64,000 nt of DNA from Bacteroidales bacterium (lineage in GTDB: Bacteria; Bacteroidota; Bacteroidia; Bacteroidales; TTA-H9): the NCBI GenBank assembly GCA_049969475.1, contig JBMFOU010000019.1:187-64186 (forward strand), in the 5' to 3' direction. Shown piece after piece: positions 175 to 19,844 of the stretch; position 1 is the first letter of the stretch, and the number at the start of each line of letters is the position of its first letter. The notes beneath the pieces are model-generated. The model was not told the DNA's origin. It saw only the letters and a list, made by a program, of their open reading frames with translations, and did not search any database. The translations under genes were made by a program, and so were the position numbers.

Positions 175-478
175 AATATGACCGAAAAATTTCAAAACAA
201 ATACCGCATACCTTCTGCCCGTGCCCCATGGTGGGATTACCGCAATGCCGCTGCCTATTTTATTACCATTTGCACCCAACACCGCCAACATTTTTTCGGG
301 GAAATTGTCCATGGGAAAATGGTATTATCCGAAATTGGAAAAATTGTTGAATCCGAATGGTTAAAAACATTTGAAATGCGTCCGGATATGAATATAACGA
401 TGGGCGAATTTGTGGTGATGCCCAATCATTTTCACGCCATTATTGGCATTGGCGAAAATGAATACAATACGCCAACAC

Positions 479-506
479 GTAGAGACGCAATGCATTGCGT
501 CTCTAC
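479..506. repeat. Perfect 28-bp REP-like palindrome GTAGAGACGCAATGCATTGCGTCTCTAC inside the RAYT ORF
   Basis: The first 14 nt are the exact reverse complement of the last 14. It begins with the GTAG tetranucleotide typical of REPs. Confidence 0.85.
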
Positions 507-507
507 T

Positions 508-543
508 GATGAAACCGATGAAACCCATGAAACCCAAAACCAA
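508..543 (+). repeat. Degenerate 9-bp tandem repeat (GATGAAACC GATGAAACC CATGAAACC CAAAACCAA) next to the palindrome
   Basis: Seen directly; encodes DET-DET-HET-QNQ. Confidence 0.7.
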
Positions 544-761
544 TTTGGACCGCAATCCAAAAACCTGGCATCTATTATTCGTGGATTTAAATCATCCGTG
601 ACGATTGCCGCCCGTAAAATCAACCCTGCATTTGCATGGCAATCCCGTTTTCACGACCACATCATTCGCAATGATGAATCCCATCAAAAAATAAGGCAAT
701 ATATTTTGAATAACCCTGCCCATTGGCAGGACGACCAATTAAAAAAATAGACATTATACCT

Positions 762-2372
762 ATGACAACAAACAACCATACCGAATTAGGCAAAACCCTC
801 TGGAAAATAGCCGACGACCTGCGAGGTTCCATGAACGCCGACGATTTCCGCGATTACATGCTTTCGTTCTTATTTCTACGCTACCTGAGCGACAACTACG
901 AAGAAGCAGCCCGGAAAGAACTCGGTAAAGATTATCCATCGCTCAGCGGAAACGGGGGCAAAACCCCACTATTCATTTGGTACGAACAAAACCCCGGCGA
1001 TGTGGCCGAATTTGAAAAGCAGATGCGAAGAAAGATACACTATGTCATAGAACCGCAATATTTGTGGAAGCATATCGCCTACCTGGCCAAAACCCAGAGC
1101 AAAGACTTGCTTAAGACTTTACAGGATGGCTTCAAATACATCGAAAACCAATCGTTCGAAAGAGCCTTTCAGGGTTTGTTCTCCGAAATCAACCTGGATT
1201 CCGATAAACTCGGAAAAAGTTATGAGGAGCGCAACAAAAAACTTTGCACCATTATTCAGAAAATTGCCGAGGGCATTAACCAGTTTTCCCCCGATAAGGA
1301 TATTTTAGGCGATGCCTACGAATACCTTATTGGTCAGTTTGCGGCAGGTTCGGGCAAAAAAGCGGGCGAATTTTACACCCCGCAACGCATTTCCGATATT
1401 CTCTCCGAAATTGTAATTCTCGACAGCCAAAACCCGGCCCAGGGCAAAAAGAAAAAAATCGAGCGGGTTTTAGACTTTGCCTGCGGTTCGGGGTCATTGC
1501 TACTAAACGTTCGCAGAAAAATAATGGAAGCAAATGGAACCATCGGCAAACTCTACGGACAGGAAAAAAACATCACCACCTACAACCTTGCCCGGATGAA
1601 CATGCTGTTGCATGGGGTGAAAGACACCGAATTCGAAATCCATCACGGAGATACCCTGCTCAACGATTGGGAGATCTTAAAAGAAATCAATCCGGCCAAG
1701 AAATTAGAATTTGATGCGGTAGTAGCCAATCCTCCCTTTAGCTACCGCTGGGAGCCCACCGAAGAAATGTCGCAGGACTTTCGTTTTAAAGATTACGGCC
1801 TGGCCCCTAAGTCGGCAGCAGATTTTGCCTTCCTGCTGCATGGCTTCCATTTCCTTGGCAAAGAGGGAACCATGGCTATCATTTTGCCTCACGGTGTATT
1901 GTTCAGAGGCGGAGCCGAGGAAAAAATCCGAAGAAAGCTCTTAGAAGACGGTAACATCGACACGGTTATAGGGCTACCGGGCAACCTGTTCTTCTCTACG
2001 GGGATTCCGGTTTGTATTTTGGTGCTGAAAAAGTGCAAAAAATTCGACGATGTGTTGTTTATCAATGCGGCCGAGCATTATGCGAAAGGCAAACGGCAAA
2101 ATGCGCTACTGCCCGAACACATAAGCAAGATTGTAGAAACCTACCAATACCGCAAAGAAGAAGACCGCTACTCCCGAAGGGTATCGATGGCAGAAATTGA
2201 AAAAAACGACTTCAACCTCAATATTTCACGCTATGTAAGCACAGCAGTTGAAGAAGAAATCATTGACCTGAAAGAAGTAAACCAAAAACTCGTTGACATT
2301 GAGAAAGAAATAGCAAAAGCAAGGGAAACCCATAATAACTTCTTAAGAGAATTGGGTCTTCCCCCCATATAA
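762..2372 (+). CDS. hsdM: Type I R-M N6-adenine methyltransferase subunit HsdM
   Basis: LW.IADDLRG, GEFYTP, DFACGSGSLL (SAM binding), NPPF (motif IV), FNLNISRY. ATG 762 is preferred over the upstream TTG, which overlaps the RAYT. Confidence 0.95.
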   Translation: MTTNNHTELGKTLWKIADDLRGSMNADDFRDYMLSFLFLRYLSDNYEEAARKELGKDYPSLSGNGGKTPLFIWYEQNPGDVAEFEKQMRRKIHYVIEPQYLWKHIAYLAKTQSKDLLKTLQDGFKYIENQSFERAFQGLFSEINLDSDKLGKSYEERNKKLCTIIQKIAEGINQFSPDKDILGDAYEYLIGQFAAGSGKKAGEFYTPQRISDILSEIVILDSQNPAQGKKKKIERVLDFACGSGSLLLNVRRKIMEANGTIGKLYGQEKNITTYNLARMNMLLHGVKDTEFEIHHGDTLLNDWEILKEINPAKKLEFDAVVANPPFSYRWEPTEEMSQDFRFKDYGLAPKSAADFAFLLHGFHFLGKEGTMAIILPHGVLFRGGAEEKIRRKLLEDGNIDTVIGLPGNLFFSTGIPVCILVLKKCKKFDDVLFINAAEHYAKGKRQNALLPEHISKIVETYQYRKEEDRYSRRVSMAEIEKNDFNLNISRYVSTAVEEEIIDLKEVNQKLVDIEKEIAKARETHNNFLRELGLPPI

Positions 2373-2590: not shown

Positions 2591-3694
2591 TCAGCGTTCG
2601 GGCATTTCGAAGTTGTATTGCATATCAGTAATTTCCAATTTCAACCAGGTCCAATCCTGCGCTTCAAGTTTCCAGGTGGCTGTCATCCGCGAAGGAATTT
2701 TAATGCCATCAAAAGTTTTGTATTCCTCCACCGCAATAATCCATTCATACTTTCGGGCATCCGGCTTATTATCCTTATATCTTTGGGCAGTAAACCGTAC
2801 AAAATCTCCCGACGAGTTAAAATAGAAGGTACCTGTTCCGGATTTTCCACGATACGTCATCGTTGCCATTACGGTGGTGTCATTTATCTGTTTCCATGCA
2901 ATATAATCGCTCAGAGCCAGGGAAGGGAACCACACTATCTCCCCCAAATACCTCTGAATCGTACCTTCATCGAGTTTATCACCCTGTTCGTTCACAATAG
3001 GCCAGAGTGCGTTAAGTTTAATTAGCATGTGGCCGGACCCATTGATGTACTTATCTCTTCCGACAAAGAAAAGCAAGTTGTTCATTTTTACTTCCACAAC
3101 CCAGATAAAGGCGGGAGGTTCGCCTGAGGTATATTGTAGGGCGGAAGCAGGCAGCCAGTCTTTCTGTTGGGGATTTAACTTCAGGTAGGCTTTTTGGGTT
3201 ATTTTACCCGAATAAATCAGGGGTTTGCCTACGGCTCCGGATGTGCGCAGCCATTTTCTTACAGGTTCAGGCAATTTACCCATATCATCTTCGCTCAGCA
3301 CCTTGTCGAATCTTATCTCACGTTGACGCATCCATTCCCCGATTTCTTTATGTACAAGGGTATGGAAATAAAAATTGCCACACATAATTAAAGACACCGC
3401 AGCCACAATCATATTGGGAAGAGTGCCAAACCTGGCATCCTTCCAATATATAACAATGAGCGCCTGCGAAATAATTACAGCGGCAAAACCCAGTAACCAA
3501 ACATACTTAAAATCAACAAAATATAATATTATAAATAAAACAAAAAGAATTGCAGCTAATAGCCATAGCAGGCCCCTGGCAGAGGAAATGGGAGATTTCA
3601 GTGGTGGAACCTCGACCAATTGAAAACCTTTTACAAAGCCCAGTAAATGAATGGCTGCATGTAAAACAACTATTACTGCGAAAACAGTTTTCAT
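2591..3694 (-). CDS. DUF6544-like membrane-anchored protein of unknown function
   Basis: Four N-terminal TM segments (LHAAIHLLG), then LPEPVRKWLRTSG..GKP and QRYLGEIVWFP motifs. Likely start MKTVF at 3694. Confidence 0.65.
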   Translation of the reverse strand: MKTVFAVIVVLHAAIHLLGFVKGFQLVEVPPLKSPISSARGLLWLLAAILFVLFIILYFVDFKYVWLLGFAAVIISQALIVIYWKDARFGTLPNMIVAAVSLIMCGNFYFHTLVHKEIGEWMRQREIRFDKVLSEDDMGKLPEPVRKWLRTSGAVGKPLIYSGKITQKAYLKLNPQQKDWLPASALQYTSGEPPAFIWVVEVKMNNLLFFVGRDKYINGSGHMLIKLNALWPIVNEQGDKLDEGTIQRYLGEIVWFPSLALSDYIAWKQINDTTVMATMTYRGKSGTGTFYFNSSGDFVRFTAQRYKDNKPDARKYEWIIAVEEYKTFDGIKIPSRMTATWKLEAQDWTWLKLEITDMQYNFEMPER

Positions 3695-3786
3695 ATTATA
3701 TTTTGAAGAATTTATATGTAGATGGTTTTCGTGAGCTGAAGAATACACAAAGCGGCAAAAAACACATGAGCCAGGACATTAATTTT

Positions 3787-6700
3787 TCAATTACCTCCCG
3801 GCTTAAATCCAATGGAAGGCCGGTCTTCAGGTCGGTTAGGTTTTGCCGTTTTGATAACTGCCTCTACGTCTACGAAGGTGATGATTTGCAGGGCATCGTG
3901 AGGTATATCGGGCATTTTGGACAATCGTTCGCTTTGAGCTCTCATTATATTTTCGAGCAGATTACGCACGAAGCGGGCATTGCCAAAATGCTTGTCTTTC
4001 GCTTCAAAGGCATCTATAAAGAAACCTAACAGGGCAGTTTCTGCTTCAGGTTCCAGTTGCATTTTGCGCTTGCGGCACATGGCTTCGAATATTTCGAAAA
4101 GCTCATCGGGCTGATAATCTGCGAAAGTAAAATACCGATTGAAACGATGCTTAAGGCCGGGATTGGTTTCAATAAGGGCTTTCATTTCATCGGTATAACC
4201 AGCCAAAATGACCACAAACTTATCGCGGTCGTTTTCCATACGAATAAGTAAGGTTTCGAGGGCCTCGCGTCCAAAATCGTTGCCTGAGTTTCCGGGAGGA
4301 TTAAGTGCATAGGCTTCATCGATGAATAGAACGCCATGCATAGCGGAGTCGATTACCTGCTGAGTCTTGGGTCCGGTCTGACCAATATATTCACCCACCA
4401 GGTCGTTGCGCGAGACCTCCACTACGTGTCCTTTGGGCAAAAGGCCCAGTGATTTATAGATACGGCCGATAAGGCGGGCCACCGTGGTTTTGCCGGTACC
4501 CGGAGGGCCCATAAAGACTGCATGCAACGACAGAGGTTGGGTGGCCAGTCCTTCCTCGCGACGCATCTTTTCAACCTTTAGAAAATTAAGCAGATTAAGT
4601 ATATCCTGCTTTATCTGAGTCAATCCGGTAAGTTCATTCAGCTCTTTGAGTATTTCATCGATCGACTCGGTAACCTCTTCTACAAACTCCTTACCTATGG
4701 CTTGTTCCACATCTGCAAGGGTAATGGTGGCCAGGTCGGCATCGGTGATGGTATCCATTTCGGCCAGCCGCGATGATTGGAGTCTGACAATTTCTTCAAA
4801 GAGGTTGCGCACCAAGCGGGCATTACCAAAATTTTTCGTACGCGATTGAAATTTCCAGGTAAAATACTTCAGCAATTTCTCGCGGGCCGCATCTTGCACA
4901 TTAAACTTGTTGGAAGCGGCCATGCGCATAAAAATTTCGAGGAGTTCATCGGCCGTATAATCCATAAAGGTAAAATAACGGTTAAACCTTGACTGTAGGC
5001 CAGGGTTGGAACCAATAAAGCAGGCCATTTCGTCGGTATATCCGGCCACAATCACCACCAGCCGGTCGCGGTAATCTTCCATGCGTTTGAGAAGCGTATC
5101 CACAGCCTCTTTACCAAAATCTTTGCCCCCGTCGGGAGGGATAAGGGTGTAGGCTTCATCAATAAACAGGATACCATCGAGAGCCGATCCAATGGCGGTG
5201 CTGGTTTTTATGGCAGTCTGTCCAATATATTCGGCTACCAAGGCTGAACGGTCCACCTCGATGAGATGGCCTTTTGACAGCAGACCCAGCGATTTATAAA
5301 TCTTACCCAGCAGTCGGGCCACGGTGGTTTTACCGGTTCCCGGAGGGCCCTGGAAGACAGAGTGCAAGGATATGGGATTGGCAGCCATTCCCCGTTCACG
5401 CCTGAGCTTTTCTACTTTAATGAATTTCATCAGACCGCTGATGTCAGCCTTGATGTTGGAAAGGCCTACCAACCGATCGACTTCGGCCAGCAATTCCTCG
5501 AGGGTAGGCTCCGGGCCTTCGTCTTTCCGGGCAGGAGCTACCGAACCTCCCGAGGGAGCCGTTTTGCACTCCTCCAGCGCATCCTTTAGATCTTCATTAT
5601 CAGGATCCACTTTCAGCCCCTGCTCAAAATATTTCTGGGCCAATTGGGTATCGCCGGCGTCTATCAGCGCTCGGCCAGCATATAAAAAGGCATTGGGGGT
5701 ATCTATCTTCGAGACTACCTTCCAATTACACGAGCGGGCCAGCGATGCAAGTTCTTCTATCTCGCCTTTGTTTTCCAACACTATGATGTAATTACAAAGA
5801 ATAATAGGATCGGTGCTTTCGAGCTTATAGGCCTTACGGTGATATTCCAGAGACTTGTCCATTTTGTCGAGCCACGACCAGGCAGCCCCCAGAGAATTGA
5901 GGGCGCTGGGAAAATCGGGCGAGTCTTCAATCGCTTTTTCGTAGTATTCGATAGCCTTCTGGTAATTTTCCTTTCTGAAATACTGTTCTCCGGTCTGAAA
6001 CAAGCGTTGCGCCTTGGGGCTTATCTTATATTCAGGAGCCGGCTCATCCGCAGTATCGTTCTTAATATCCGACGGAGTGTCCTCTTCCTCTTCTGATCCA
6101 ATGGTTTGATCCTCCTCCTCATCCACCAGCATCGACATTACAACCACCCACACGCCGTTGCCATACACCAGGTTTGTAATTTCGTATCCTTCATTCCACT
6201 TGGCAAGTATTTCATCCTTGGGAAATTCTTTGTTAAAAACATAGTACTGATCTCTGAAAGGGGCCCCTTGGGTCATTACCAGGCCCCATTTACCCTTGGC
6301 GGCTGGAGTAAGAGCAGTTATGTAGTAGTCTTTGGCCCAATAGTCTTTGATGGTATTTGAGGGAATATCGCTATAGAGTCCACTGATTTGTTCGGCATAG
6401 TCAGGCAAAATACCAAAGAGCACCACCCAACGGTTATCCCCATAAGCTAAATGAGTGATAAACTCACCTCCTTTAAGCGCTTCCTTGATTTCCTTGGAAG
6501 GAAACTCACCTGAGGTCATCCAGCGCTGATTAGCTATGAACGTATTATTGGAAAAAATCGCCCACCAACGGTCGTAACCGTAGCCGATGTCCGAAATATC
6601 AAGCCCATCGCTCCAGGCTTTCGAAATAGCATCCTTGGGAAATTCCTTGCGGGTACTCCAGCGCTGCTGTTGGTATTTGCTTTGGTTATCTGCCACCAGC

Positions 6701-6813
6701 ACCCACTTTTCTCCCGTATTGGCCAAAAGGTGAACACGCCCCCCTTCTTCCCAGATTTTATCTATCGACTCTTCCGGAAAACCTTCAGAAAAAATAATTC
6801 TGTTGCCAGCCAT
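3787..6813 (-). CDS. Multidomain AAA+ ATPase: five 46-aa repeats + acidic linker + TPR + two CbbX/SpoVK-type AAA+ domains
   Basis: Two copies each of GPPGTGKTT (Walker A), LFIDEAY (Walker B), NPGL.(S/H)RF (Arg finger) and FGNAR.VRN (sensor 2). TPR-like segment with AIEYYEKAIE..PDF and YFEQGLKVDPDN. N-terminal repeats (E/D)FP...I...W..G..I....YG...W. Confidence 0.85.
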   Translation of the reverse strand: MAGNRIIFSEGFPEESIDKIWEEGGRVHLLANTGEKWVLVADNQSKYQQQRWSTRKEFPKDAISKAWSDGLDISDIGYGYDRWWAIFSNNTFIANQRWMTSGEFPSKEIKEALKGGEFITHLAYGDNRWVVLFGILPDYAEQISGLYSDIPSNTIKDYWAKDYYITALTPAAKGKWGLVMTQGAPFRDQYYVFNKEFPKDEILAKWNEGYEITNLVYGNGVWVVVMSMLVDEEEDQTIGSEEEEDTPSDIKNDTADEPAPEYKISPKAQRLFQTGEQYFRKENYQKAIEYYEKAIEDSPDFPSALNSLGAAWSWLDKMDKSLEYHRKAYKLESTDPIILCNYIIVLENKGEIEELASLARSCNWKVVSKIDTPNAFLYAGRALIDAGDTQLAQKYFEQGLKVDPDNEDLKDALEECKTAPSGGSVAPARKDEGPEPTLEELLAEVDRLVGLSNIKADISGLMKFIKVEKLRRERGMAANPISLHSVFQGPPGTGKTTVARLLGKIYKSLGLLSKGHLIEVDRSALVAEYIGQTAIKTSTAIGSALDGILFIDEAYTLIPPDGGKDFGKEAVDTLLKRMEDYRDRLVVIVAGYTDEMACFIGSNPGLQSRFNRYFTFMDYTADELLEIFMRMAASNKFNVQDAAREKLLKYFTWKFQSRTKNFGNARLVRNLFEEIVRLQSSRLAEMDTITDADLATITLADVEQAIGKEFVEEVTESIDEILKELNELTGLTQIKQDILNLLNFLKVEKMRREEGLATQPLSLHAVFMGPPGTGKTTVARLIGRIYKSLGLLPKGHVVEVSRNDLVGEYIGQTGPKTQQVIDSAMHGVLFIDEAYALNPPGNSGNDFGREALETLLIRMENDRDKFVVILAGYTDEMKALIETNPGLKHRFNRYFTFADYQPDELFEIFEAMCRKRKMQLEPEAETALLGFFIDAFEAKDKHFGNARFVRNLLENIMRAQSERLSKMPDIPHDALQIITFVDVEAVIKTAKPNRPEDRPSIGFKPGGN

Positions 6814-6845
6814 AAAGTTTTGTTTATAAGTTGTTTATTTTCAAT

Positions 6846-7376
6846 TTAAGAACAATAAGGACAATGGTCGCCGGTGAAAGTATTTCCGCATCGGCTGCAA
6901 CGATAGGTTCCCGAGCTCGATTTAAATCCGGCTGAAAGCAGAGAACCTCCGAAAAATACGAGGAAAATGCCCACCACAATGATTATCACCAGGATAAACG
7001 CAAAGAATGTCAATACCAGGAGAAAGAAATTAATTATCAACCAGAAAACCAGTCGAGGAAAACCTCCCAGCAAGCCACCGGCCGCGAAACTTTCCATAAT
7101 AAGCAGAAGTAGCATCAAGAAAATCAGAAGGGTACCTGCCCACAGGAACCAGGTAAATCCATGGTATTCGGCACCCGGAATGAGAGTAAAGCCTCCATTG
7201 AAAAACCATTCCAACTCATCGCTATCGATGAGAGCACCCGTAAAAAGCAAAACGGCGCTGAAGAGACCAATCAACAAAGGCCATTTTCTGAATCGCCGGA
7301 TAGGAAAATATCTTTTCAATGAGAAGTTTTGTAAGGCATTCTTACTTTCTTCTCCTTTGCGGGCCGTTTCTTTCAT
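6846..7376 (-). CDS. Membrane protein (3-4 TM) with C-terminal zinc ribbon (CSRC...CPYC); start uncertain
   Basis: Long hydrophobic stretches and terminal YRCSRCGNTFTGDHCPYCS. Ends 32 nt before the AAA+ gene on the same strand. Confidence 0.7.
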   Translation of the reverse strand: MKETARKGEESKNALQNFSLKRYFPIRRFRKWPLLIGLFSAVLLFTGALIDSDELEWFFNGGFTLIPGAEYHGFTWFLWAGTLLIFLMLLLLIMESFAAGGLLGGFPRLVFWLIINFFLLVLTFFAFILVIIIVVGIFLVFFGGSLLSAGFKSSSGTYRCSRCGNTFTGDHCPYCS

Positions 7377-7576
7377 CTCATCCCGACGACTCAGGCCCAG
7401 CAGCCACTCGTCGATGGGTTCGAAATATTTGTAGATAAAGAAAACAGGTTTTATGGAATTTGGGGGGATTCGACGCTAAGGGATGGGCATCAGAAAGCTT
7501 GTTCAACAAACCTTTAGTCCCCCAAAACCTTAATTATTTCTACCCAAGGTGAGGAATGCCATTGTTAATTGACTAA

Positions 7577-7584
7577 CAAAAATA
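7577..7584 (-). promoter_or_regulatory. Bacteroidota -7 promoter box (TATTTTTG) upstream of the Zn-ribbon/AAA+ unit
   Basis: Matches TAnnTTTG on the minus strand, in an AT-rich divergent intergenic region. Confidence 0.45.
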
Positions 7585-7709
7585 ATATTTTTCTATATAA
7601 AACATAGTTTTATAAAATATAATGGTAATAAAATCAATAATTTAAAATCAATCTAAGTTAAGAGCAGGGAAGACGGTACAGAAGAAATTCCTTTTCAGCC
7701 AGGGTTTGC

Positions 7710-7717
7710 TACCTTTG
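7710..7717 (+). promoter_or_regulatory. -7 promoter box (TACCTTTG) for purF
   Basis: TAnnTTTG match about 20 nt upstream of the purF ATG. Confidence 0.65.
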
Positions 7718-7736
7718 CAGCCTAATTCGACGGCCC

Positions 7737-9638
7737 ATGAGCGAAGTTGTGAAGCACGAATGCGGCATTGCATTTATCAGGCTATTAAAACCGCTGGAGT
7801 ATTATCTGTCGAAATACGGAACCACCACCTGGGCGCTAAACAAACTCCAGCTTCTCATGGAAAAGCAACACAACAGGGGCCAGGATGGTGCGGGCATTGC
7901 CTGCATTAAATTCGATCTCGAGCCTGGGAAAAAATACATCAACCGCATACGAAGCAATTCATCTACACCCATTAAGGATGTTTTTGATCAAGTTTTTGCT
8001 CCTTATAAAAAACTCAAGGAACAACATCCGCAACGTTTGTTCGATGTACAGTACCTGAAGGAGAATGTAGATTTCAGTGGAGAACTGTTCCTGGGGCATT
8101 TGCGTTATGGTACCTTCGGGAAAAACACTCTTCTGAACATTCATCCTTTTGTTCGCGAAAACAATTGGAAAACCCGTAATCTGGTGCTGGCCGGCAATTT
8201 TAACCTCACCAATGTGGATGAACTATTTGCCCGCCTGGTAGCATTGGGTCAGTTTCCGGTAGAAACCTCCGATACGGTAACCATACTCGAAAAAATCGGT
8301 CATTTTGTAGATGAAGAAAACGAGCGAATTTTCAAACATTACAGAGCTCAGGGATACTCCAAGAAAGAAATTACTCAATTTATCATCCGCGATTTCGATT
8401 TGCTCAATGTTCTCAGGGAAGCGTCGGCCCACTGGGATGGTGGATATGTGATGGCAGGCTTGCTGGGACACGGCGATGGGTTTGTGATGCGCGACCCCTC
8501 AGGCATACGGCCCGCCTTCTGGTATGCTGACGACGAGGTAGTAGTGGCAGCCAGCGAAAGACCGGTTATTCAGACCACATTTAACCTGAAAGCGGAGCAA
8601 GTTCAGGAAATACCGCCTGCTCATGCCCTGATGGTCAAAAGCGACGGCACTTACCGAATAGCAGCCTTCACCGAACCTCGACGCAAAGCAGCCTGTTCCT
8701 TCGAGCGTATTTATTTTTCGCGGGGCACCGATAAAGACATCTATCTGGAGCGTAAACGCCTGGGGCGCTACCTTCTCCCTTCCATTCTGAAAGCCATTGA
8801 CTACGACCTGGAGCATACCGTATTTTCTTACATCCCAAATACCGCAGCCGTGGCTTTTCAGGGTTTGATGGAAGCACTGATTGAGTTTTGCGATGGGCTG
8901 AGAAAAGAAAAACTTTTGGCCTTGGGACACTCCCCCACGCCTGAAGAACTTGAGGAAATCTTTAGTATCAGGCCTCGTTTCGAGAAAATTGCGGTTAAAG
9001 ATATCAAGCTGCGCACTTTCATCACCCAGGACGAACAGCGCGACGATTTGGTGGCGCATGTCTACGATATAACCTATGGTGCAGTAAGGCCGGGTATTGA
9101 CAACTTGGTGGTTATCGACGACTCTATTGTGAGAGGCACCACTTTACAGCAAAGCATTATACGTATCCTCGACCGGCTTGAACCTAAAAAAATCATCATA
9201 GCCTCCTCGGCCCCCCAAATACGCTACCCCGACTGTTATGGCATCGACATGGCCAAACTCGGCGATTTCATTGCATTTAAGGCCGCTATCGAACTATTGC
9301 ATGAAACCCATCAGGAAGCCATCATCAACCTAGTATATAAAAAGGCCAAAGAACAATTGACATTGCCCAAAGAACAGATGTCAAATCCTGTGAAAGATAT
9401 TTATTCCCCATTTACACAGGAACAAATAGCTGCTAAAATCGCTCAACTGGTTACCCACCCCAGGGTGAAGTCGAAGGTAGAAATCGTTTTCCAGACCGTC
9501 GACGACCTTCACAGAGCCATTCCCGAACATACGGGTGATTGGTACTTCACGGGCGATTATCCTACGCCAGGAGGCAACAAAGTCGTAAATAGAGCTTTTG
9601 TCAATTACATCGAAGGACGCAACGAGAGAGCATATTGA
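7737..9638 (+). CDS. purF: Amidophosphoribosyltransferase (Bacteroidota type)
   Basis: N-terminal HE|CG Ntn nucleophile, QHNRGQDGAG, GHLRYGT, CSFERIYFSR, VVIDDSIVRGTT (PRPP loop), YGIDM. Confidence 0.9.
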   Translation: MSEVVKHECGIAFIRLLKPLEYYLSKYGTTTWALNKLQLLMEKQHNRGQDGAGIACIKFDLEPGKKYINRIRSNSSTPIKDVFDQVFAPYKKLKEQHPQRLFDVQYLKENVDFSGELFLGHLRYGTFGKNTLLNIHPFVRENNWKTRNLVLAGNFNLTNVDELFARLVALGQFPVETSDTVTILEKIGHFVDEENERIFKHYRAQGYSKKEITQFIIRDFDLLNVLREASAHWDGGYVMAGLLGHGDGFVMRDPSGIRPAFWYADDEVVVAASERPVIQTTFNLKAEQVQEIPPAHALMVKSDGTYRIAAFTEPRRKAACSFERIYFSRGTDKDIYLERKRLGRYLLPSILKAIDYDLEHTVFSYIPNTAAVAFQGLMEALIEFCDGLRKEKLLALGHSPTPEELEEIFSIRPRFEKIAVKDIKLRTFITQDEQRDDLVAHVYDITYGAVRPGIDNLVVIDDSIVRGTTLQQSIIRILDRLEPKKIIIASSAPQIRYPDCYGIDMAKLGDFIAFKAAIELLHETHQEAIINLVYKKAKEQLTLPKEQMSNPVKDIYSPFTQEQIAAKIAQLVTHPRVKSKVEIVFQTVDDLHRAIPEHTGDWYFTGDYPTPGGNKVVNRAFVNYIEGRNERAY

Positions 9639-10771: not shown

Positions 10772-11836
10772 CTACAAGGCGATTCTTACACCAATAGAAT
10801 GGGTGCCATCGAAATGTTCTGTAGAACGGTAAGAATAATCGATAGAGAAAACAGAACCTTTGTCTTTGTTAAGGGGAACCTGCACAGTAAAGCCTCCGCT
10901 AAATCCTTTCCCAACAGTGATTTTATTACCGCTTTCGATGTCTTCAAACATTCCATCCTCAAAGGTGTATCCTGCCCTAAGCATAACATAATCCCGGAAT
11001 GAAAACTCGGCACCACCCATGAAAAGGTCATTGGAGAAGGCATTCGACTGGAAGTTTCCGGCCAAAGTAAACCTTGACCTATCGAACAAGAAATCGTAGG
11101 CAGCACCGATACACATGGTGGTAGGCAACTCAAATTTGGCCTGACGTTGTGTAAGGGTAAACTGGGTCTCTTGTCCGGGGATGAAGACGCGGGTGGCAAA
11201 ACCATCACCCGAGAAGGACATGGTGGGACCCACATTCTTTAGGGTAATGCCGAACTTGATATTTTCTTCCTCGCCTGTAACATACTGAATACCTGCATCG
11301 AGGGCGACACCACCGGCCGAGGCATCGGAGATGCTCTCGTTGATGATGCGCAGAAGCAAACCTCCATAAATACTATTGGAGAAGGCCTTCGAGTAACTGA
11401 TACCTACATTGAGGTAGCTGGGCGAGAAGGTGCCGATACCACCTTCAGGAAGGTCGGTTCGGGTAATCATAATGTCGCCTATCGACATGGATGTGATGCT
11501 CATTCCCAACACGCCCGACTCGCTCACTCTTTGCGTAAAACCAAAGGCAGATATTTTAATGTCAGTGCCTTTGAGCCATTGGGTCTGGGAGAAAATAAGC
11601 TCAGTGGAGTTAGTGTGAGCCACACCGGCCACATTGGTAAACATAGATTCGAGGCCGCGCACGGTGGCAACGTTTACCCCACCCCAACCGCTGCTACGCG
11701 CCCAGGGATTAATAAGTAGTTCGGAACCACCGGCTTGCCCGGAACGGTCTTTGTTGCCCGCCTGAGCCATTTGAACGGGGAGAATAAACAATCCGGTGAG
11801 GGCTATTGCGATCAAATATTGAGAAATCTGTTTCAT
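10772..11836 (-). CDS. PorV/PorQ-family outer-membrane beta-barrel
   Basis: Signal peptide, then L.INP.ARS.G.G...A (PorV/FadL-like N-terminus), A.DAGIQY, FG.TLKNVG and amphipathic strands. Likely start MKQIS at 11836. Confidence 0.75.
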   Translation of the reverse strand: MKQISQYLIAIALTGLFILPVQMAQAGNKDRSGQAGGSELLINPWARSSGWGGVNVATVRGLESMFTNVAGVAHTNSTELIFSQTQWLKGTDIKISAFGFTQRVSESGVLGMSITSMSIGDIMITRTDLPEGGIGTFSPSYLNVGISYSKAFSNSIYGGLLLRIINESISDASAGGVALDAGIQYVTGEEENIKFGITLKNVGPTMSFSGDGFATRVFIPGQETQFTLTQRQAKFELPTTMCIGAAYDFLFDRSRFTLAGNFQSNAFSNDLFMGGAEFSFRDYVMLRAGYTFEDGMFEDIESGNKITVGKGFSGGFTVQVPLNKDKGSVFSIDYSYRSTEHFDGTHSIGVRIAL

Positions 11837-11889
11837 ACCATTCATTTTTTTGATGTTTAAACAATTGGCATTCATCATAGTACCCATCG

Positions 11890-14800
11890 TTAGAAGGTAT
11901 TAAGATCGATAGGCCGCAGAGCACCGAACCATTTCAGTATACGCTCCCCTCCTTCGCTCTTGATATGGAAGATATACACCCCGCCTGCAATGGGAATGCC
12001 GGCGAAGTTCTTCAAATCCCAGTCAAGGTAGGTGCTTGGATCATCTTTAGTAAACTGACGTATGAGCGTTCCATTCATGTTATAGATGGTAACCACGCAT
12101 TTCTTCGGAAGATTGGTAATCTTGACTCTGTTGTCAAGAGCATTAGATTCATACGAAGAATAAGCGTAGTAGGGGTTGGGTACAATATTAATCAGATCTA
12201 AGTCGGTCTGCGTTTTTACAGCATCATTGTAAAGAGGTTCAAGGCCTTCTGTTGTAAAGGCGTAAACCGGATAGTTATGGTTAAGGGTGTCATCAGTGCC
12301 TGGGGGTAAGGGGCGAGAGTAATAACGACCATAAGGCTTGCTCACTCTGATGCGGAACCTGGCATCATTAGAAAGCCACCACTCCGGATGATCTGATGCA
12401 GGCAGAGGCATACCCACCCACATGGTGCTGGCGAAAACAGCGGTCTTGGTGACAATTTCAGGGGTGCGTTGTAGAACATTATACAAGTAGCGGCAGCCAT
12501 CATAAGCCGGGAATTCATAAACTGAGTCTTGAATTCTCACACGGGTGTGCTGCATCACATACACATAATGCTTACCGCCAAACACCGGTTTTCCATTTTC
12601 ATAAAGAGTGGGAGAAGGATTGAATATCATGTCGCGACCATTATGCCCGCTCAACCAGCTATCCTCACCAAACATGATATTGAGGCGTTCGCCCGTTTCG
12701 AGATTGATGGCATAGCCGGGGAACCAACCAAATCCCACCGGACCAATGAATGCCGGGTCGTTGGGGTCGGTGCTGGGCTGAGCATCGGCCGTGGCCTTCA
12801 CACCATCCTTGTTCACTGAGAAACCTGCCCGCGGGCTGAAACGTTTTACACCGCCTTCAGCAAGTTTTGGATCGGGGCACATCTCAATGACCAGCGCACG
12901 GGTCCATTTCGATTTATCGCTTGTCAGTACGATATCGACGCTGGCCGCAGTAGATAGCGGGCAGTTATTTTTGGAAACTACGTTATAGGCAGGGCCTTCG
13001 GGGCTCTGGTCATTGTAGGCAGTCAATCCGTATGGAGCCCACATACCGCCTATAACTTTTTCGAAGTACTCATTGGGGTCCCAAGGATTGGCAGGCGAAC
13101 CAGCCATCTGCCAGTCGTTATAGTTGGGATTCTCGTCATCCTTATATGTACCTGCACGTATCCAGTTCTGGGCACTCGAAGGAACGTTGTTATCGAAAAC
13201 TCCGCTCAGCCAACGTTTAGAGCTATCGGCATACAAAAGGTTGGACTCAATGAAACCATTTTTGATTGCCGAACTGCTACCCGGGTTTGCGACCTGGTAG
13301 ATATGAATAGCCAGGCCAAGATCAATGAAGAGCTGCTGATAATCGTAATTGATGGTCGAATCGCTTTTGTACACCTTGCCGGTTTCATCTATCATTCTCC
13401 ACGCTGCATTGGTGAGCTCACCCTGAGTATTTACAACATTTCGGATAAATTCGATAGTGAAGTTGCCCTTTTTCACATTTAAGGGGTCGATGACCTTAAT
13501 GTTAAGGGGTCCGTAACCGCCTTGGTATACGGGATGGTATGCAATGGGATAATTGGGGCTACCATAAGGATTGTCAACAGGATGAGCCACAGGCTTACTT
13601 AAGATCTCATCGATAGTGGCTTGAGAGAGTTCGAGAGACATGCCTCCATTACCTTGTCCCTGAATACGGGTGATAACAGGTCCATCACCAAAGTTCGATT
13701 TTACAACCAAGCCATTGATTGTTTTATGTGGAATGGCAGTATATACCTTGATATTTTTACGACCTGCGAGATAAGGTTTTTTCTGTCCGTCAAGCCCAGT
13801 AGGATCGATCGTGTACTTCTTGTATTCATTATAGGCATACGCAATAGCCAGATAATAATACTGCTTGTGGTTAACCAGCCTGCGGTCGCCAGTGGCAAAA
13901 GCATCTTCGGTAATTTTGAATACATGCTGAATTCCATTATCGCCTCCTTCTACTTCAACCACAGGAACACTGTAACCAATGGCCTGATCAGGATAGTGGT
14001 TAACCAATTTGGTAACTCCGTTGCGAATATCGCATTGGAATACCAGGCGGGCTTTGGCCGGGTCGTGCAGACTTTCAACCGACACCGAAGCATCTTTCAA
14101 CTGAAATATCTGATATCCTTCGAAGCGATAGAGAGAGTCGCCGCCTTTGATAGTAATATCGCGTTCGGCATATCCTTCCCTAAAGTTGTTAGAAGTTTTT
14201 TTATTGGTGAGATAAATCAAAAGTTCGCGATCGAGTTCCTGAATAGTCAGATCTGGAGCGTCAGGACCATCCAGTACTTTGAAACAGTTATCGAACAGAG
14301 CCTGGCACTTATCGTCTACTACACGAAGGAGTTTAACCGAAGCTTCAGGTCCACCCGAAATAGCCCGGGCCCAGGGTACACCGAAGGTAATGTAGTTAAC
14401 AGCACCAGGAAGAAGGGTGAAAGGACCGGCCGACTGCATGAAACGGCGGTCGTAAGGTTGATTACCGGCGGTAACTTCAGTCCAATAAAGACCATTCTGG
14501 TTGTAACCACCGTTAGGCGGAATACCCCTTGTGCCCCAGTTGCAGGGGTCAGAGTCGCCGGGGAACATGAAGTCGCATTCGGGCCCAACTGCACCGGGAT
14601 TCGAGGGGTGTGCATTTCCACCATAAATCATTTTGGTGTTGTCGCGCCAAATACCTCTCAGGTAGTTATAATATTCTGGAGCAATTCTAGGGTCGCCCTG
14701 CACAGAGTTGTCGTTGTTATGATAAACAAAACGACGCATGCCGTAACGTTCATCGTCCACAATACCATTACCAAAGTTCACTCCATTGATAGCGGCACTG

Positions 14801-16074
14801 TTTACCAGGAAGTTTCCTGTTTTCTGTTCTCCAGGTTTGCCATAAGTCATCACAATGACAGTGGAGTCGAAGTTTACGATGGAGCAGTCGCCATTGAATG
14901 AGGGCCCAAGAATGCCATCTCCATTAAAGGAGGGATTATCGTATCCATCGGGGTCGAGGTAAGGACCCTGGAAGAAGTCGATACCCACAGCCGGTGGTTG
15001 ATCTCCATAAGCTTCTACCTGTCCTGTTCCATCCACGGCTTTACCATTGTATGCATAGCCCATACCGCGCAAAACGTCGCAACCTACGTAGTCATCGTAG
15101 GCATATCCAAGGTCGGCATCGGTCCACGGAGAAAAATAGGTATTGGTGAGGGTAAAAGTGGAACGGTTAATAATTTCGTAGGAGTAGAAGGTCATGTTGT
15201 TGATTTCGTCGTTGGTGGCGAAGCCAAAGGCCTGGGCTCTAATTTCCAGACCGATAGCCTGACCCTGGGATTCGGAGTGGAAGTTTCCTTTATCATTGAA
15301 AACCCACCAGAACGTTTTATCTCCTTTAAGTACCTGGTCGGCTAGGATGCCGCCTTTTACAATGCCCTGTACACCTTCCAAAGTCTGGATAGGGCTGTGA
15401 CAGAGTTCGTTGGGAATATCATAGTAAGGATAGTCGCCCTGATTGGGATCGTATTCACCATTGCCATCCATATCGTAGAAGGGAGCCAGGTAGTAGCTCT
15501 GGAATTTGGAGGGATCGCCATGGGCTGGCCAATCGAGGATGCTTTTGGGGATGGAGTATCCGGGATATTCTTCAGCCCGGTTTTCGCTGAACCACCAGCC
15601 CAGGAATTCATCCACTTCGGCCCTGGAAATAATGAAGAACTTATCGTATTCAGCACAGGTTTCGGGGTCAACAGCTGCTGTACCATCTATGGTGAGGGGT
15701 CCGGTCCAGTAGTCGTTACCTACCTGACGGAAACGCAGAGCAGCCATTTTCAGCTGGTCGTTTACGTCAAGGCCTCCAATCCACAAGGAGCCGGCAAAAA
15801 GAGAAGTCTTGGTAGTATTGGCAGGGATGTAATACTGCGAACCGGCACCGGCTCCCAGGTCCCACCACATATCGCCACCCGTATTAATACGGCAACGAAC
15901 ATTATTAATATCCAAAAACTGATAGGCCGAAGCAGCCGAGCAACCAGCTGTACTGGCCTTGACGGCTTTTGATTGTTTTTGCTTGTCGCCCACAAATACA
16001 TCCCCGTAAACATTGACGTTTAGCAGGGCGAGAAGGCCGACAATCACCCAAATTCGCTGTAACATCTTGGTCAT
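11890..16074 (-). CDS. Large secreted protein with a T9SS C-terminal sorting-like domain
   Basis: Signal peptide; LDINNV N-terminal motif; DMDGNGEYD Ca-binding-like loop; FEGYQIFQ FN3-like segment; C-terminal I.IVPNPY...TIYNMNGTLIR...WDLKN..G..IAGGVY...ILKW. Start 16074 or 16065 preferred. Confidence 0.8.
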   Translation of the reverse strand: MTKMLQRIWVIVGLLALLNVNVYGDVFVGDKQKQSKAVKASTAGCSAASAYQFLDINNVRCRINTGGDMWWDLGAGAGSQYYIPANTTKTSLFAGSLWIGGLDVNDQLKMAALRFRQVGNDYWTGPLTIDGTAAVDPETCAEYDKFFIISRAEVDEFLGWWFSENRAEEYPGYSIPKSILDWPAHGDPSKFQSYYLAPFYDMDGNGEYDPNQGDYPYYDIPNELCHSPIQTLEGVQGIVKGGILADQVLKGDKTFWWVFNDKGNFHSESQGQAIGLEIRAQAFGFATNDEINNMTFYSYEIINRSTFTLTNTYFSPWTDADLGYAYDDYVGCDVLRGMGYAYNGKAVDGTGQVEAYGDQPPAVGIDFFQGPYLDPDGYDNPSFNGDGILGPSFNGDCSIVNFDSTVIVMTYGKPGEQKTGNFLVNSAAINGVNFGNGIVDDERYGMRRFVYHNNDNSVQGDPRIAPEYYNYLRGIWRDNTKMIYGGNAHPSNPGAVGPECDFMFPGDSDPCNWGTRGIPPNGGYNQNGLYWTEVTAGNQPYDRRFMQSAGPFTLLPGAVNYITFGVPWARAISGGPEASVKLLRVVDDKCQALFDNCFKVLDGPDAPDLTIQELDRELLIYLTNKKTSNNFREGYAERDITIKGGDSLYRFEGYQIFQLKDASVSVESLHDPAKARLVFQCDIRNGVTKLVNHYPDQAIGYSVPVVEVEGGDNGIQHVFKITEDAFATGDRRLVNHKQYYYLAIAYAYNEYKKYTIDPTGLDGQKKPYLAGRKNIKVYTAIPHKTINGLVVKSNFGDGPVITRIQGQGNGGMSLELSQATIDEILSKPVAHPVDNPYGSPNYPIAYHPVYQGGYGPLNIKVIDPLNVKKGNFTIEFIRNVVNTQGELTNAAWRMIDETGKVYKSDSTINYDYQQLFIDLGLAIHIYQVANPGSSSAIKNGFIESNLLYADSSKRWLSGVFDNNVPSSAQNWIRAGTYKDDENPNYNDWQMAGSPANPWDPNEYFEKVIGGMWAPYGLTAYNDQSPEGPAYNVVSKNNCPLSTAASVDIVLTSDKSKWTRALVIEMCPDPKLAEGGVKRFSPRAGFSVNKDGVKATADAQPSTDPNDPAFIGPVGFGWFPGYAINLETGERLNIMFGEDSWLSGHNGRDMIFNPSPTLYENGKPVFGGKHYVYVMQHTRVRIQDSVYEFPAYDGCRYLYNVLQRTPEIVTKTAVFASTMWVGMPLPASDHPEWWLSNDARFRIRVSKPYGRYYSRPLPPGTDDTLNHNYPVYAFTTEGLEPLYNDAVKTQTDLDLINIVPNPYYAYSSYESNALDNRVKITNLPKKCVVTIYNMNGTLIRQFTKDDPSTYLDWDLKNFAGIPIAGGVYIFHIKSEGGERILKWFGALRPIDLNTF

Positions 16075-16130
16075 ATGCTCTGTTTTTATTTTATTATCTT
16101 TAGTCATTTTGATTACAATAACCCAACCCA

Positions 16131-19100: not shown

Positions 19101-19844
19101 ATAATTGAATTTATCCAGAAATTTTGAAGACTGAGCTTCCAAACCTCCGGCATACTGGTTAGATGGCCCCTTGGTGATTACGTTGATAACCCCTGAGGTA
19201 GCATCACCGTACTGGGCCGGAAGTCCTGAGATGATAACCGATACTTGTTCGATAGCCGATGGAGGCAAACTGGATGAACCTGTAACCTTTACTCCATCGA
19301 TATACATCACTGTGGCCTCGCTACGGGCTCCACGCACGCTACCCCGTTCACCATCGGCCGAGAACACACCACCTACCGTTGTGGCAACAGCATTGGCCGA
19401 GCGGTTGGGCATTTTTTCAATCTGTTCTGAGGTTACCGTGGCACCTACTGTAGTTTGGTCCTTCTCGATCAGAGGTACCTTGTAGCTGGTCACTTCCACT
19501 TCAGAAAGGGCTACAGAGGTAGGCTCCAGCTCGATATTGAAAAACTCTATCTTACCAGCGCCTATAACCAATCCCTTGGTAAGCAGGGTTTTATAACCCA
19601 CATACGAACAGCGTACATCGTAGCGGCCCGGATTGATGGGTTTAATGATGTAATTCCCCTCAAAGTCGGACGTGGCTCCACCCGATTGTACCCCATTCAT
19701 CTCGATTACCACGTTGGCAAACGGAATAGGTTCTTTAGTGCTCTTGTCAACAATCTTCCCTTTCAGGGTTCCCGTGGCCTGGGAAAACACCAGCACATGC
19801 GCTGCCAGTATCACCCCCAGCGTTAACAGTATATTTCTTATCAT
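16131..19844 (-). CDS. TonB-dependent receptor with N-terminal carboxypeptidase-regulatory-like domain
   Basis: GTLKGKIVD..TKEPIPFANV, SVRGAR, GLPAQYGDATSGVINVITK plug motif, NPNLK, C-terminal F. Confidence 0.88.
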   Translation of the reverse strand: MIRNILLTLGVILAAHVLVFSQATGTLKGKIVDKSTKEPIPFANVVIEMNGVQSGGATSDFEGNYIIKPINPGRYDVRCSYVGYKTLLTKGLVIGAGKIEFFNIELEPTSVALSEVEVTSYKVPLIEKDQTTVGATVTSEQIEKMPNRSANAVATTVGGVFSADGERGSVRGARSEATVMYIDGVKVTGSSSLPPSAIEQVSVIISGLPAQYGDATSGVINVITKGPSNQYAGGLEAQSSKFLDKFNYNRLGLNLQGPVIRKKDKEKGTSQSILGFFLAGDFLYQGDAAPSNIGRWKVKDDVVEYLKQNPLRPTGLGYGTYPNAAFLSNNDFEQVKNSQNASATSINLSGKLDLRLSQTTNFTLGASANYNRNHSFSYSRSLMNWDNNPLNQNYTYRTFARFTQRFPSAGDSKAFIKNVYYSLQADFSKYHSKTESERHKDNLFKYGYLGRFDTYTTRSYELGSDTVNGHVYNNVYVHNGYRDTMVTFTPADFNWEAARYTQTYYDFYPDVNGNWENFTQLLLGGAKINGMSLDNIYGLWQAPGAVYNGYSEYDADQIGFNGMFSADIGNHEIQFGIQYEQRKESSYGYGPVGFWQLMRGLTNFHILELDQNNPVLVTRDGVFQDTIYYYRKYDAKSQRTFDRNLRRKLGLPVDGVDFINIDSYDFASRTINYYDKDGNLKTITMGEDLFDVSMFSADELLNDGNSYVSYFGYDYTGKKLKKQPTFEDFLTKKNADGDFLREVPAFQPIYMAGYIQDKFAFKDLIFNVGVRVDRFDANQLVLKDPFSLYPTRTVREVTKVGDQTVSHPANMGSDYVVYVDNATNPTRITGYRNGAVWYNADGIEIADPSALDAGSGVTPYLVDPANQTLQRAAFKDYDPQLAIMPRISFSFPISDEALFFAHYDILTQRPQGENRFDITDYYYFNTRTGTLDNPNLKSPKTIDYELGFKQKLNNSSALTLSAYYKEVRNEIQIYRYSGAYPRDYVSYNNIDFGTVKGFTITYDLRRTRNVTMRAAYTLQFADGTGSSPTTAAALIAARLPNLRTPNPLAWDRRHAINLSVDYRYGAGKDYDGPRINRKDKAPIELLRNTGVNFTVIGGSGTPYTRSANITSALSGGSRLLKGSYYGSRLPWQFRVDAKLDKDIDIVWSKKEGEKPKVSTLNLYFQVLNVFNFKNVMAVYPATGNPDDDGYLAAAEWQREINQQLNPDTYRMMYKIYINNPGNYSSPRMMRLGLIFNF

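Follow-up and report, generated by a model that had tools for sequence, protein, structure and literature searches.

Do two co-oriented genes, one for a double AAA+ ATPase and one for a small membrane protein, form a two-gene system of their own, and if so, of what kind? The question is raised by a stretch of 64,000 nucleotides (nt) from a Bacteroidales bacterium (assembly GCA_049969475.1, contig JBMFOU010000019.1, positions 187 to 64,186), referred to here as the window, in which open reading frames (ORFs) of 176 and 1008 amino acids (aa) follow each other on the reverse strand, 32 nt apart. An earlier reading, made from the letters only (the sequence-only reading), described the larger protein correctly and took the pair for an undescribed conflict, defence or stress system beside restriction-modification genes. 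We find that the gene for the 1008-aa ATPase sits on the chromosome and is passed down vertically in one Bacteroidales family, and that the 176-aa ORF is a fragment, a non-native form, of a larger membrane-receptor gene. Because the partner is truncated, there is no intact two-gene system in the window. The explanation that we favor, with a probability of roughly 55%, is that the ATPase is a dedicated cytoplasmic chaperone which normally has a membrane-spanning, lectin-like partner, and that the operon has partly decayed in the window's strain.

The layout of the ATPase that had been read from its letters is confirmed by Pfam, AlphaFold2 (AF2) and composition: five repeats, an acidic linker, tetratricopeptide repeats (TPRs) and two AAA+ modules, D1 and D2 (Table 1). 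The linker holds 15 Asp or Glu residues against a single Lys or Arg in 33 residues, and the TPR region also matches consensus-TPR chains in the PDB. A hydropathy scan of the 1008 residues found no hydrophobic span of the signal-peptide or transmembrane type, in agreement with the earlier remark that no signal peptide is visible. Proteins sharing the architecture fall into about a dozen clusters at 90% identity and, where named, come from Bacteroidales metagenome-assembled genomes; one such ATPase (P0006) is 90% identical to that of the window.

Pfam assigns two stretches each to PF00004 (AAA, 1.5e-36) and PF17866 (AAA_lid_6, 3.1e-34), and the modules share 58% identity. The Walker A, Walker B, conserved Arg and sensor-2 elements that had been claimed for both are in place. 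Namely, Walker A lies at residues 489 and 769, Walker B at 548 and 828, the pore-loop EYIGQT at 528 and 808, and the sensor-2 motif FGNAR at 662–666 and 943–947, with R666 and R947 invariant. A GY motif is found at 590 and 871 (AGY 590–592 and 871–873; G591/Y592 and G872/Y873 invariant in 14 sequences), and NPGLQSRF at 603 and NPGLKHRF at 884, with N603/R609 and N884/R890 invariant, align with NPGFRSR of CbbX. GY, an Asn before the Arg finger and a sensor-2 Arg are named as the SpoVK-EccA-like clade's signatures (PMC11513918, cited here and below from the part of the paper that was available), and both modules of the ATPase carry all three on an AAA core followed by AAA_lid_6. The clade definition places the Asn ‘4 residues upstream’ of the Arg finger (PMC11513918); here the invariant Arg stands at Asn +6, and CbbX has an Arg at +4 and at +6.

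Structural relatives were found for each module. D1 (432–707) matches the EccA1 chain 9lur_A at E 6e-52, and D2 (718–982) matches 3zuh and 3syl, both CbbX chains, with an E value of 1e-62 across 265 residues, the module alignment to CbbX beginning about 70 residues ahead of Walker A. The clade definition also names a bihelical hairpin that precedes Walker A and touches the adenine (PMC11513918). Taken singly, the modules stay under every family cut-off of NCBIfam: D1 and D2 score 294 and 281 bits against SpoVK (TIGR02881, cut-off 423), 266 and 265 bits against EccA (TIGR03922, cut-off 467) and 231 and 247 bits against CbbX (TIGR02880, cut-off 459). The match to TIGR03922 is restricted to profile positions ~270–553, which is the ATPase part of that profile. 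Scores of the whole protein do exceed the SpoVK, EccA and CbbX cut-offs (471 for CbbX, against 459), only because the two modules sum. On these comparisons the ATPase is assigned to the SpoVK/EccA/CbbX clade, outside its three characterized families.

Members of this clade are narrow-client chaperones whose variable N-terminal domains bring in the substrate; they lack a peptidase association and have roles in secretion, envelope biosynthesis and carbohydrate metabolism (PMC11513918). The idea of a sensor or adaptor coupled to a remodeller, put forward in the sequence-only reading, fits this clade (PMC11513918). Because the ATPase modules are two, complete and duplicated, the protein is probably a two-tier hexamer; alternatively, three tandem chains may close a planar ring.

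The second gene has a different history from the one suggested by its letters. The 176-aa ORF does have the hydrophobic spans (residues 31–53 and 72–152) and the C-terminal CxxC-x8-CxxC on which it was described as a membrane zinc-ribbon gene; as a gene, however, it is merely the 3' third of a larger one. It aligns to residues ~378–553, the last third, of 546–558-aa proteins in relatives, and what it retains of them is the loop on the cytoplasmic side, some four membrane helices and the zinc ribbon. Cys 160, 163, 172 and 175 are invariant in 8/8 aligned sequences and in 9/9 full-length proteins, and the partner alignment has 32 invariant columns, with the remnant sequence included by construction. 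Partner homology detected by tblastn spans 6852 to 7445, running past the ATG without meeting a start codon, and a TAG stop lies in frame at 7476–7478. When the 176-aa protein was used as a query on 41 related genomes, matches were found in nine, the window's genome included. Seven are other members of the family, and in each the matching part forms the C-terminus of a longer open frame (433–567 aa, compared with 209 aa in the window); the ninth genome, of another family, gave a weak match (E 1.2e-4). Among 5.8 billion proteins the only short form of the partner is the window's own.

The full-length partner of about 555 aa opens with a signal-peptide-like start, followed by a Laminin_G_3 domain (LamG; E down to 7e-13), a stretch of helix and then an SH3-like beta barrel, modelled by AF2 with a predicted local distance difference test (pLDDT) score around 85. 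Hydropathy then gives membrane helix 1, a loop of basic character and some four further hydrophobic helices, and the protein ends in the invariant zinc ribbon YRC..CG...CP.C. The AF2 model of the partner in the family genome G001 has a mean pLDDT of 70.6, good in the LamG and SH3-like parts and poor in the membrane part. An Atlas search with the full-length partner yielded nothing but LamG clusters, whose score of 0.81 is what the Atlas gives by chance. The missing 5' part of the gene was not found elsewhere in the window's genome (G000), where the other match is a weak LamG hit in a 1279-aa frame. LamG-only matches to the partner profile, in frames of ~530 aa, were also observed in two other genomes of the family (G008:C10:53219-53968, E 3e-21; G003:C70:4073-4801, E 1e-14), and the G008 frame holds one TAA.

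Contigs of three public sequencing runs, compared with window positions 3000–9000, place the break in the partner gene at 7444/7445. X1 record 7, from another sample and 97% identical, fits 6959–7444 with 14 differences in 486 nt; beyond 7444 its next 60 letters are unlike the window and translate by hand, in the frame of the gene, to VIMLVIGIL and then the conserved ...FFIYKYF, which reads as membrane helix 1 of the full-length partner. X3 record 18 (68,198 nt) fits 3803–5526, 5867–7322 and 7690–9000 at about 83–91% identity, diverges from the window below 3803, and has 1749 letters between 7322 and 7690 in place of the window's 367. The truncation is therefore either a strain difference or an assembly mis-join. 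A mis-join of the contig (C19) at 7444/7445, with a full-length partner in the real genome, would account for a junction that is seen in this assembly only, while X1 continues into the partner and X3 has 1749 nt there; the genome is a 58-contig draft (98.4% complete). We consider such an artefact improbable, as the partner-ATPase side and the purF side of the junction match the order and orientation of G004, G009 and G012, just as a simple internal deletion predicts, and a mis-join would require a shared repeat (none was looked for).

In the window, everything upstream of partner codon ~355 is gone: the cluster has decayed and the ATPase gene is intact. The remnant is 36–45% identical to outgroup C-termini, compared with 30–32% for the intact copy of G001, and thus appears not to be diverging faster than intact copies. 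This is as expected for a recent event; given the strain-level age of the break, the relative-rate result says little about whether the remnant functions. If the remnant and the ATPase gene have a promoter, it would have to lie in the spacer to the divergent purF-like gene. One weak sigma-70-like site was found there (7562–7533, reverse strand), and the whole region held fewer of these sites than its shuffled versions, in a model that is uninformative for Bacteroidota; a terminator scan run alongside was likewise uninformative for Bacteroidota promoters.

Table 1. Features of the locus, in window coordinates.
Feature	Coordinates	Strand	Basis
hsdS tail (Methylase_S match C19:13-306)	1 to ~120	+	Profile match
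190-aa ORF, overlaps hsdM start	178–750	+	Weak IS200-like Y1_Tnp match, E 0.002, below cut-off
hsdM, type I restriction-modification methylase	723–2372	+	Pfam N6_Mtase, HsdM_N; PADLOC MTase_I, 530 bits
DUF6544/DUF6920 membrane protein, 385 aa, 38 nt downstream of ATPase gene	2591–3748	-	Pfam, E 3e-78
ATPase gene P0001 (DUF7477 + TPR + tandem AAA+, 1008 aa)	3787–6813	-	ORF, translation, Pfam and NCBIfam
AAA+ module D2 with AAA_lid_6, residues 715–990	3844–4671	-	CbbX match, motifs
AAA+ module D1 with AAA_lid_6, residues 432–707	4693–5520	-	EccA1 match, motifs
TPR region, residues 263–415	5569–6027	-	Pfam TPR_2, TPR_1 and TPR_14 stretches, residues 270–409
Acidic linker, residues 230–262	6028–6126	-	Composition; pLDDT <50 from residue 233
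Five ~46-aa repeats (DUF7477), residues 1–231	6121–6813	-	Pfam PF24289, alignment, AF2, VIA-align
Spacer between remnant ORF and ATPase gene, 32 nt	6814–6845		ORF coordinates
176-aa ORF P0002, 3' remnant of LamG/SH3/transmembrane/zinc-ribbon partner gene	6846–7376	-	Alignment to relatives
Zinc ribbon YRC..CG-x7-CP.C, remnant residues 158–176	6849–6905	-	Cys invariance
In-frame partner homology 5' of ATG (last part of membrane helix 1 plus beginning of loop, no start codon)	7377–7445	-	tblastn
Breakpoint; sequence above unrelated to partner gene	7444–7445		Contigs from other runs
Spacer to divergent purF, would hold any promoter for remnant and ATPase gene	7446–7736		Sequence
purF-like amidophosphoribosyltransferase, locus anchor	7737–9638	+	Pfam, NCBIfam

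The arrangement in relatives was examined in a family collection of 13 genomes, G000 included. Full-length orthologues of the ATPase (E <= 1e-100) are present in 10 of the 13, and none was found in G002 (completeness 65%) or in either genome of genus g5. In seven of the nine other ATPase-bearing genomes (G001, G004, G005, G007, G009, G011 and G012) the full-length partner gene lies directly upstream on the same strand, one of these loci being cut by a contig end. As called, the partner and ATPase ORFs are at most 50 nt apart or overlap in all seven, across four genera. A conserved, co-oriented membrane and zinc-ribbon partner, as had been suspected, is thus real in relatives. Further upstream are a DUF6232 membrane protein of 120 aa (six loci) and a TPR/AraC regulator of ~660 aa (four loci). 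The intact cluster therefore normally runs, co-oriented, from the DUF6232 gene to that of the ~555-aa membrane protein to the ATPase gene as the last, with the TPR/AraC gene upstream. The purF-like gene adjoins the ATPase locus in five loci and has orthologues next to that locus in G004, G008, G009 and G012. Its 633-aa product scores 116 bits against an equivalog cut-off of 350, a divergent form that is kept at 66–75% identity in the family.

Several observations weigh against a dedicated chaperone with a membrane partner. Both genomes of genus g2 (G003 and G008) have the ATPase with no trace of an adjacent partner, and with the ATPase kept there without a partner and in G000 with a truncated one, the ectodomain is not strictly needed. 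Outside the family, the partner was not found in the 28 genomes searched or in 29 other families of the order, save for the one weak match, and wider protein searches gave only four full-length clusters. Two other families of the order (G020 and G038) carry DUF7477-TPR-AAA genes beside other neighbors, and no contig from the three runs bridges 7444/7445 as the window does. Furthermore, the envelope role discussed below draws on domain content and a weak genomic context. Much of this would suit a chaperone that stands alone, with cytosolic clients reached through DUF7477 and the TPRs and a membrane protein that is a lineage-specific regulator or a neighbor by descent. In addition, G008 retains DUF6232, and by eye its ATPase gene has an upstream region of its own, with a hairpin and a T-run after the DUF6232 gene. 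We regard this alternative as possible, if somewhat unlikely, since descent alone usually allows looser spacing than the one kept, on the same strand, in 7/7 genomes with both genes and across four genera.

The N-terminal repeats of the ATPase are, with the TPRs, the part that may bind a client or adaptor. They match DUF7477 (PF24289) in three stretches at 96.3 bits against a cut-off of 27 (E 2.2e-27; repeats at residues 3–231), and an alignment of ten N-terminal domains displays a repeated FP..I..W / G.W.LV / Q.W pattern in all five units. The AF2 model of the repeats (pLDDT 92.3, predicted template modelling score 0.88) consists of five strand-helix-strand-strand (E-H-E-E) units. Foldseek gave one borderline match in the PDB, 7tpu_A, at E 1.1e-3. 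VIA-align, run against 48,161 chains, found the same chain (7tpu_A 14–276) with a Z score of 21.4 and a root-mean-square deviation of 3.6 over 234 aligned residues at 11% identity; the runner-up had a Z score of 6.2. The chain is the fungal polyglycine hydrolase Fvan-cmp, in which five quasi-identical 44-residue EHEE repeats of the N-domain form a barrel, described as a novel fold of unknown function that perhaps serves in substrate, exosite or protein-protein binding (PMC9912923, likewise from the available part of the paper). As modelled, the repeats of the ATPase share this five-repeat barrel.

The barrel is not confined to ATPases. A HMMER search with DUF7477 of 1.84 billion representative proteins returned 712 at E <= 0.001, of which 369 reach <= 1e-10 and 52 reach <= 1e-30. 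We scanned the first 82 of the 150 listed representatives of these 712 with Pfam. The domain is accompanied by a caspase (C14) domain in 18/82, a protein kinase in 12/82 and CbbX-type AAA in 8/82 (seven tandem, one single). Smaller numbers carry TIR (2/82), trypsin-like (2/82) or other peptidase domains (3/82), Fib_succ_major (2/82), a type IX secretion system (T9SS) sorting domain (2/82), TPRs only (2/82), PDZ only (1/82), transglutaminase (1/82), FGE-sulfatase (1/82) or VWA (1/82), and 27/82 have no other domain.

Hydropathy places a single membrane span between kinase and DUF7477 in 11 of the 12 kinase fusions. An N-terminal hydrophobic span is present in six of the 18 caspase fusions by threshold, and 17 of the 18 look signal-peptide-like by eye; neither a signal-peptide-like start nor a span was seen in the eight AAA fusions or the two TIR fusions. 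In these proteins DUF7477 resembles the ectodomain of membrane-anchored Ser/Thr kinases, and caspase-type peptidases that look secreted have it as a module; in two TIR-DUF7477 proteins it is cytoplasmic. From these predicted topologies, DUF7477 appears to be a mostly extracytoplasmic binding module, of which a minority of copies, that of the window included, are cytoplasmic. The company of caspases, kinases and TIR domains is therefore weaker as a sign of a cytoplasmic immune sensor.

This bears on the reading of the pair as a conflict or defence system, in which DUF7477 and the TPRs would sense an invader, the AAA+ rings would act as a switch and the membrane protein as an effector. The same fusions to caspase (18), protein kinase (12) and TIR (2) among the 82 representatives can be counted for it, together with the type I restriction-modification genes that adjoin the window's copy; the hsdS tail and hsdM are indeed where the sequence-only reading had put them, near the pair. 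Weak PADLOC matches of the ATPase to IetA (50 bits) and TRIP13-type (47 bits) ATPases also exist. Against it, the PADLOC scores, at no more than 50 bits, concern a generic P-loop region, and the kinase and caspase fusions, on the spans and signal-peptide-like starts given above, look like envelope or secreted proteins.

A PADLOC-DB 2.0 scan of 79 neighbor proteins, 70 of them from nine relatives' loci, produced matches in 2/70 of the relatives' neighbors, a HIT domain to ThsC2 at 27 bits and a TPR at 29.5 bits, both generic; a HIT-domain protein of the window has the same generic ThsC2 match (30.8 bits). No match was obtained for the remnant, the DUF6544 protein, the full-length partners or the DUF6232 proteins, and in this database the pair was not found to belong to any known anti-phage system. 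Neither did we find linkage of the pair to hsdM/hsdS in relatives: no homologue of hsdM or of the DUF6544 protein, which has N-terminal membrane helices, occurs in the nine relatives' loci, and the flank that carries them is not shared with the ~89%-identical relative (X3 contig). This flank is genome- or strain-specific and the adjacency to restriction-modification genes is incidental, whereas the position on the purF side is fixed across genera.

To our knowledge, the large signal-peptide and LamG ectodomain of the partner is also unlike the known membrane-disrupting effectors. The defence reading is not supported, nothing at the locus points to phage defence, and we would give such a role only a slim chance. 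The homologues are, largely, what the sequence-only reading had named as the opposite outcome, core genes that are vertically inherited and show no defence enrichment; it is in their conserved partner, present in seven of nine, that they depart from it.

Returning to the dedicated chaperone with a membrane partner, we propose that the ATPase would act, like its characterized relatives, with narrow specificity, at the inner face of the cytoplasmic membrane. The DUF7477 barrel and TPR array would bind a client or an adaptor, which the two ATPase tiers would then remodel. The membrane partner would dock or gate the ATPase through its cytoplasmic loop and its zinc ribbon, and its LamG domain could read a periplasmic, perhaps glycan-binding, event, coupling it to ATP-driven remodelling of the client. 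Complex prediction, with alignments, for residues 1–430 of the ATPase and the remnant gave scores of 0.00 and 0.01 against a mark of 0.32, which speaks neither for nor against binding.

A reversed relationship, in which the ATPase takes the partner as its substrate and pulls on the zinc-ribbon tail, so as to extract membrane proteins or control their quality as machines of the FtsH or Cdc48 type do, would explain the pore-loop aromatic that is kept in both modules (EYIGQT) as well as the exposed cytoplasmic tail in which the partner ends. We consider this very unlikely: the clade has no peptidase association and has been argued to act in assembly or activation and not in unfolding for degradation (PMC11513918), and no protease gene is present in the cluster.

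A bolder version of the proposal may also be considered, in which the intact cluster is an undescribed trans-envelope module. Here a periplasmic lectin-like receptor would recruit or gate a two-ring, EccA-like remodeller through its zinc-ribbon tail, and DUF7477, employed on either side of the membrane, would be a barrel for ligand binding in general that may recognize one common envelope-derived ligand. We hold this to be doubtful. If true, it would be a Bacteroidota counterpart of the EccA/SpoVK logic, serving secretion or the assembly of cell-wall or surface glycans.

A number of neighboring and related loci were recorded alongside. In G020, of family f9, locus L115 (C97, 6776–12671, reverse strand) comprises genes for a 220-aa PspC protein, PadR, a 556-aa protein with PspC, LiaI/LiaF-TM and toast-rack domains, and an 884-aa tandem CbbX-type AAA+ protein with ~340 N-terminal residues free of domain matches; the cluster resembles a module for envelope stress that includes a related ATPase. 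Locus L114 of the same genome (C96, 2040–7926, forward strand) holds a 1110-aa TPR-DUF7477-double-AAA protein, with the TPRs first in order, followed by YceG/MltG and a phosphoglucomutase/phosphomannomutase-family (phosphoglucosamine-mutase-like) gene and preceded by Fur and peroxiredoxin genes. Together, L114 and L115 hint weakly at an envelope theme.

At L118 (G021:C520, 417–6233, forward strand), a 1150-aa protein kinase and two small ORFs precede a gene for a tandem CbbX-type AAA+ protein, which the end of the contig cuts short. Genera g3 and g6 have, downstream of the ATPase gene and on the opposite strand, a trio of genes for an extracytoplasmic function (ECF)-type sigma factor, an outer-membrane beta-barrel protein of ~466 aa and a PKD-repeat/T9SS-sorting protein of ~663 aa (L023 1238–5210, L024 10690–14662, L028 1245–5202 and L029 5358–9361); this trio is not in the window. 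The window itself has, at 10772–19844 on the reverse strand, a gene for a PorV/PorP-like outer-membrane protein and then ORFs of 1413 and 1237 aa, the former with a weak T9SS sorting-domain match. The PorV-like gene and the 1413-aa ORF are common to the G008 locus (L026), in which the analyzed stretch ends inside the large ORF. A contig scan with the full-length alignment and Walker A patterns gave at least 80 loci; among the 80 listed, none had the partner or DUF7477 by our own hidden Markov models. These are generic tandem CbbX-type ATPases from Streptomyces and others, and are uninformative on the distribution of the architecture.

How does the ATPase compare with known remodellers? Mycobacterial EccA (EccA1) shares the N-terminal TPR array and a CbbX-type AAA+ module with AAA_lid_6, and is regarded as a dedicated chaperone with a link to some membrane machine (PMC11513918). 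The window's ATPase differs in having two AAA+ modules and a DUF7477 barrel, and in its host, a member of the Bacteroidota with T9SS genes nearby and not an actinobacterium or firmicute. G000 has no match at E <= 0.01 to WXG100 (PF06013), the only type VII secretion core gene for which a search was made. With CbbX, the red-type Rubisco activase, D2 aligns in Walker A/B, the pore-loop YIG, NPG..R and sensor 2; the ATPase adds large N-terminal modules and a tandem ATPase, and its genome has no match at E <= 0.01 to the RuBisCO large subunit (PF00016).

SpoVK gives the best-scoring NCBIfam model for each module and shares the clade signatures and the concept of a narrow-client, envelope-related chaperone. 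It is a sporulation chaperone that promotes MurG activity, with a short N-terminal domain of ~40 aa and a single ATPase module (PMC11513918), whereas the ATPase has two, each under the TIGR02881 cut-off. The best SpoIVA_ATPase match in G000 reaches 17.6 bits, under the cut-off of 26.6.

The Fvan-cmp N-domain has the same five repeats of ~44–46 aa closing into a barrel, known for the ATPase from a predicted model; in the fungus the domain is secreted, ahead of a beta-lactamase-like protease, whereas that of the window is cytoplasmic and stands ahead of TPRs and AAA+ modules. Finally, ClpB/Hsp104, p97/Cdc48 and NSF also place an N-terminal adaptor domain before two ATPase modules in one chain, and Cdc48 chains match weakly across both modules (E 3e-12). 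In those remodellers D1 and D2 are distinct lineages, whereas here both stem from the recent duplication of a single CbbX-type module (58% identity), and a stacked double ring is presumed for the window's ATPase.

No published description was found of the pair or of DUF7477/PF24289, DUF6232 and PF19744, in keeping with the earlier view of the pair as undescribed. Literature on SpoVK, EccA or CbbX with tandem, TPR or Bacteroidetes yielded no account of this architecture, and the available part of Kaur et al. 2020 (PMC7159879) makes no mention of CbbX. Fig. 3A and the supplementary information of PMC11513918 include operons with a ‘ZnBd’ partner, which might bear on novelty. As far as found, a polyglycine-hydrolase-type barrel with TPRs and a duplicated ATPase is an undescribed architecture within a known chaperone clade.

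The SpoVK/EccA/CbbX clade has few well-studied narrow-client chaperones and many unstudied members, to which the window's ATPase adds an architecture. For the window, what was read as a two-gene system is a decayed copy, and the pair is best studied in relatives, where a candidate membrane partner could make the client findable. DUF7477, a widespread orphan fold, gains contexts that suggest a binding role, mostly in secreted- or membrane-anchored-looking proteins.

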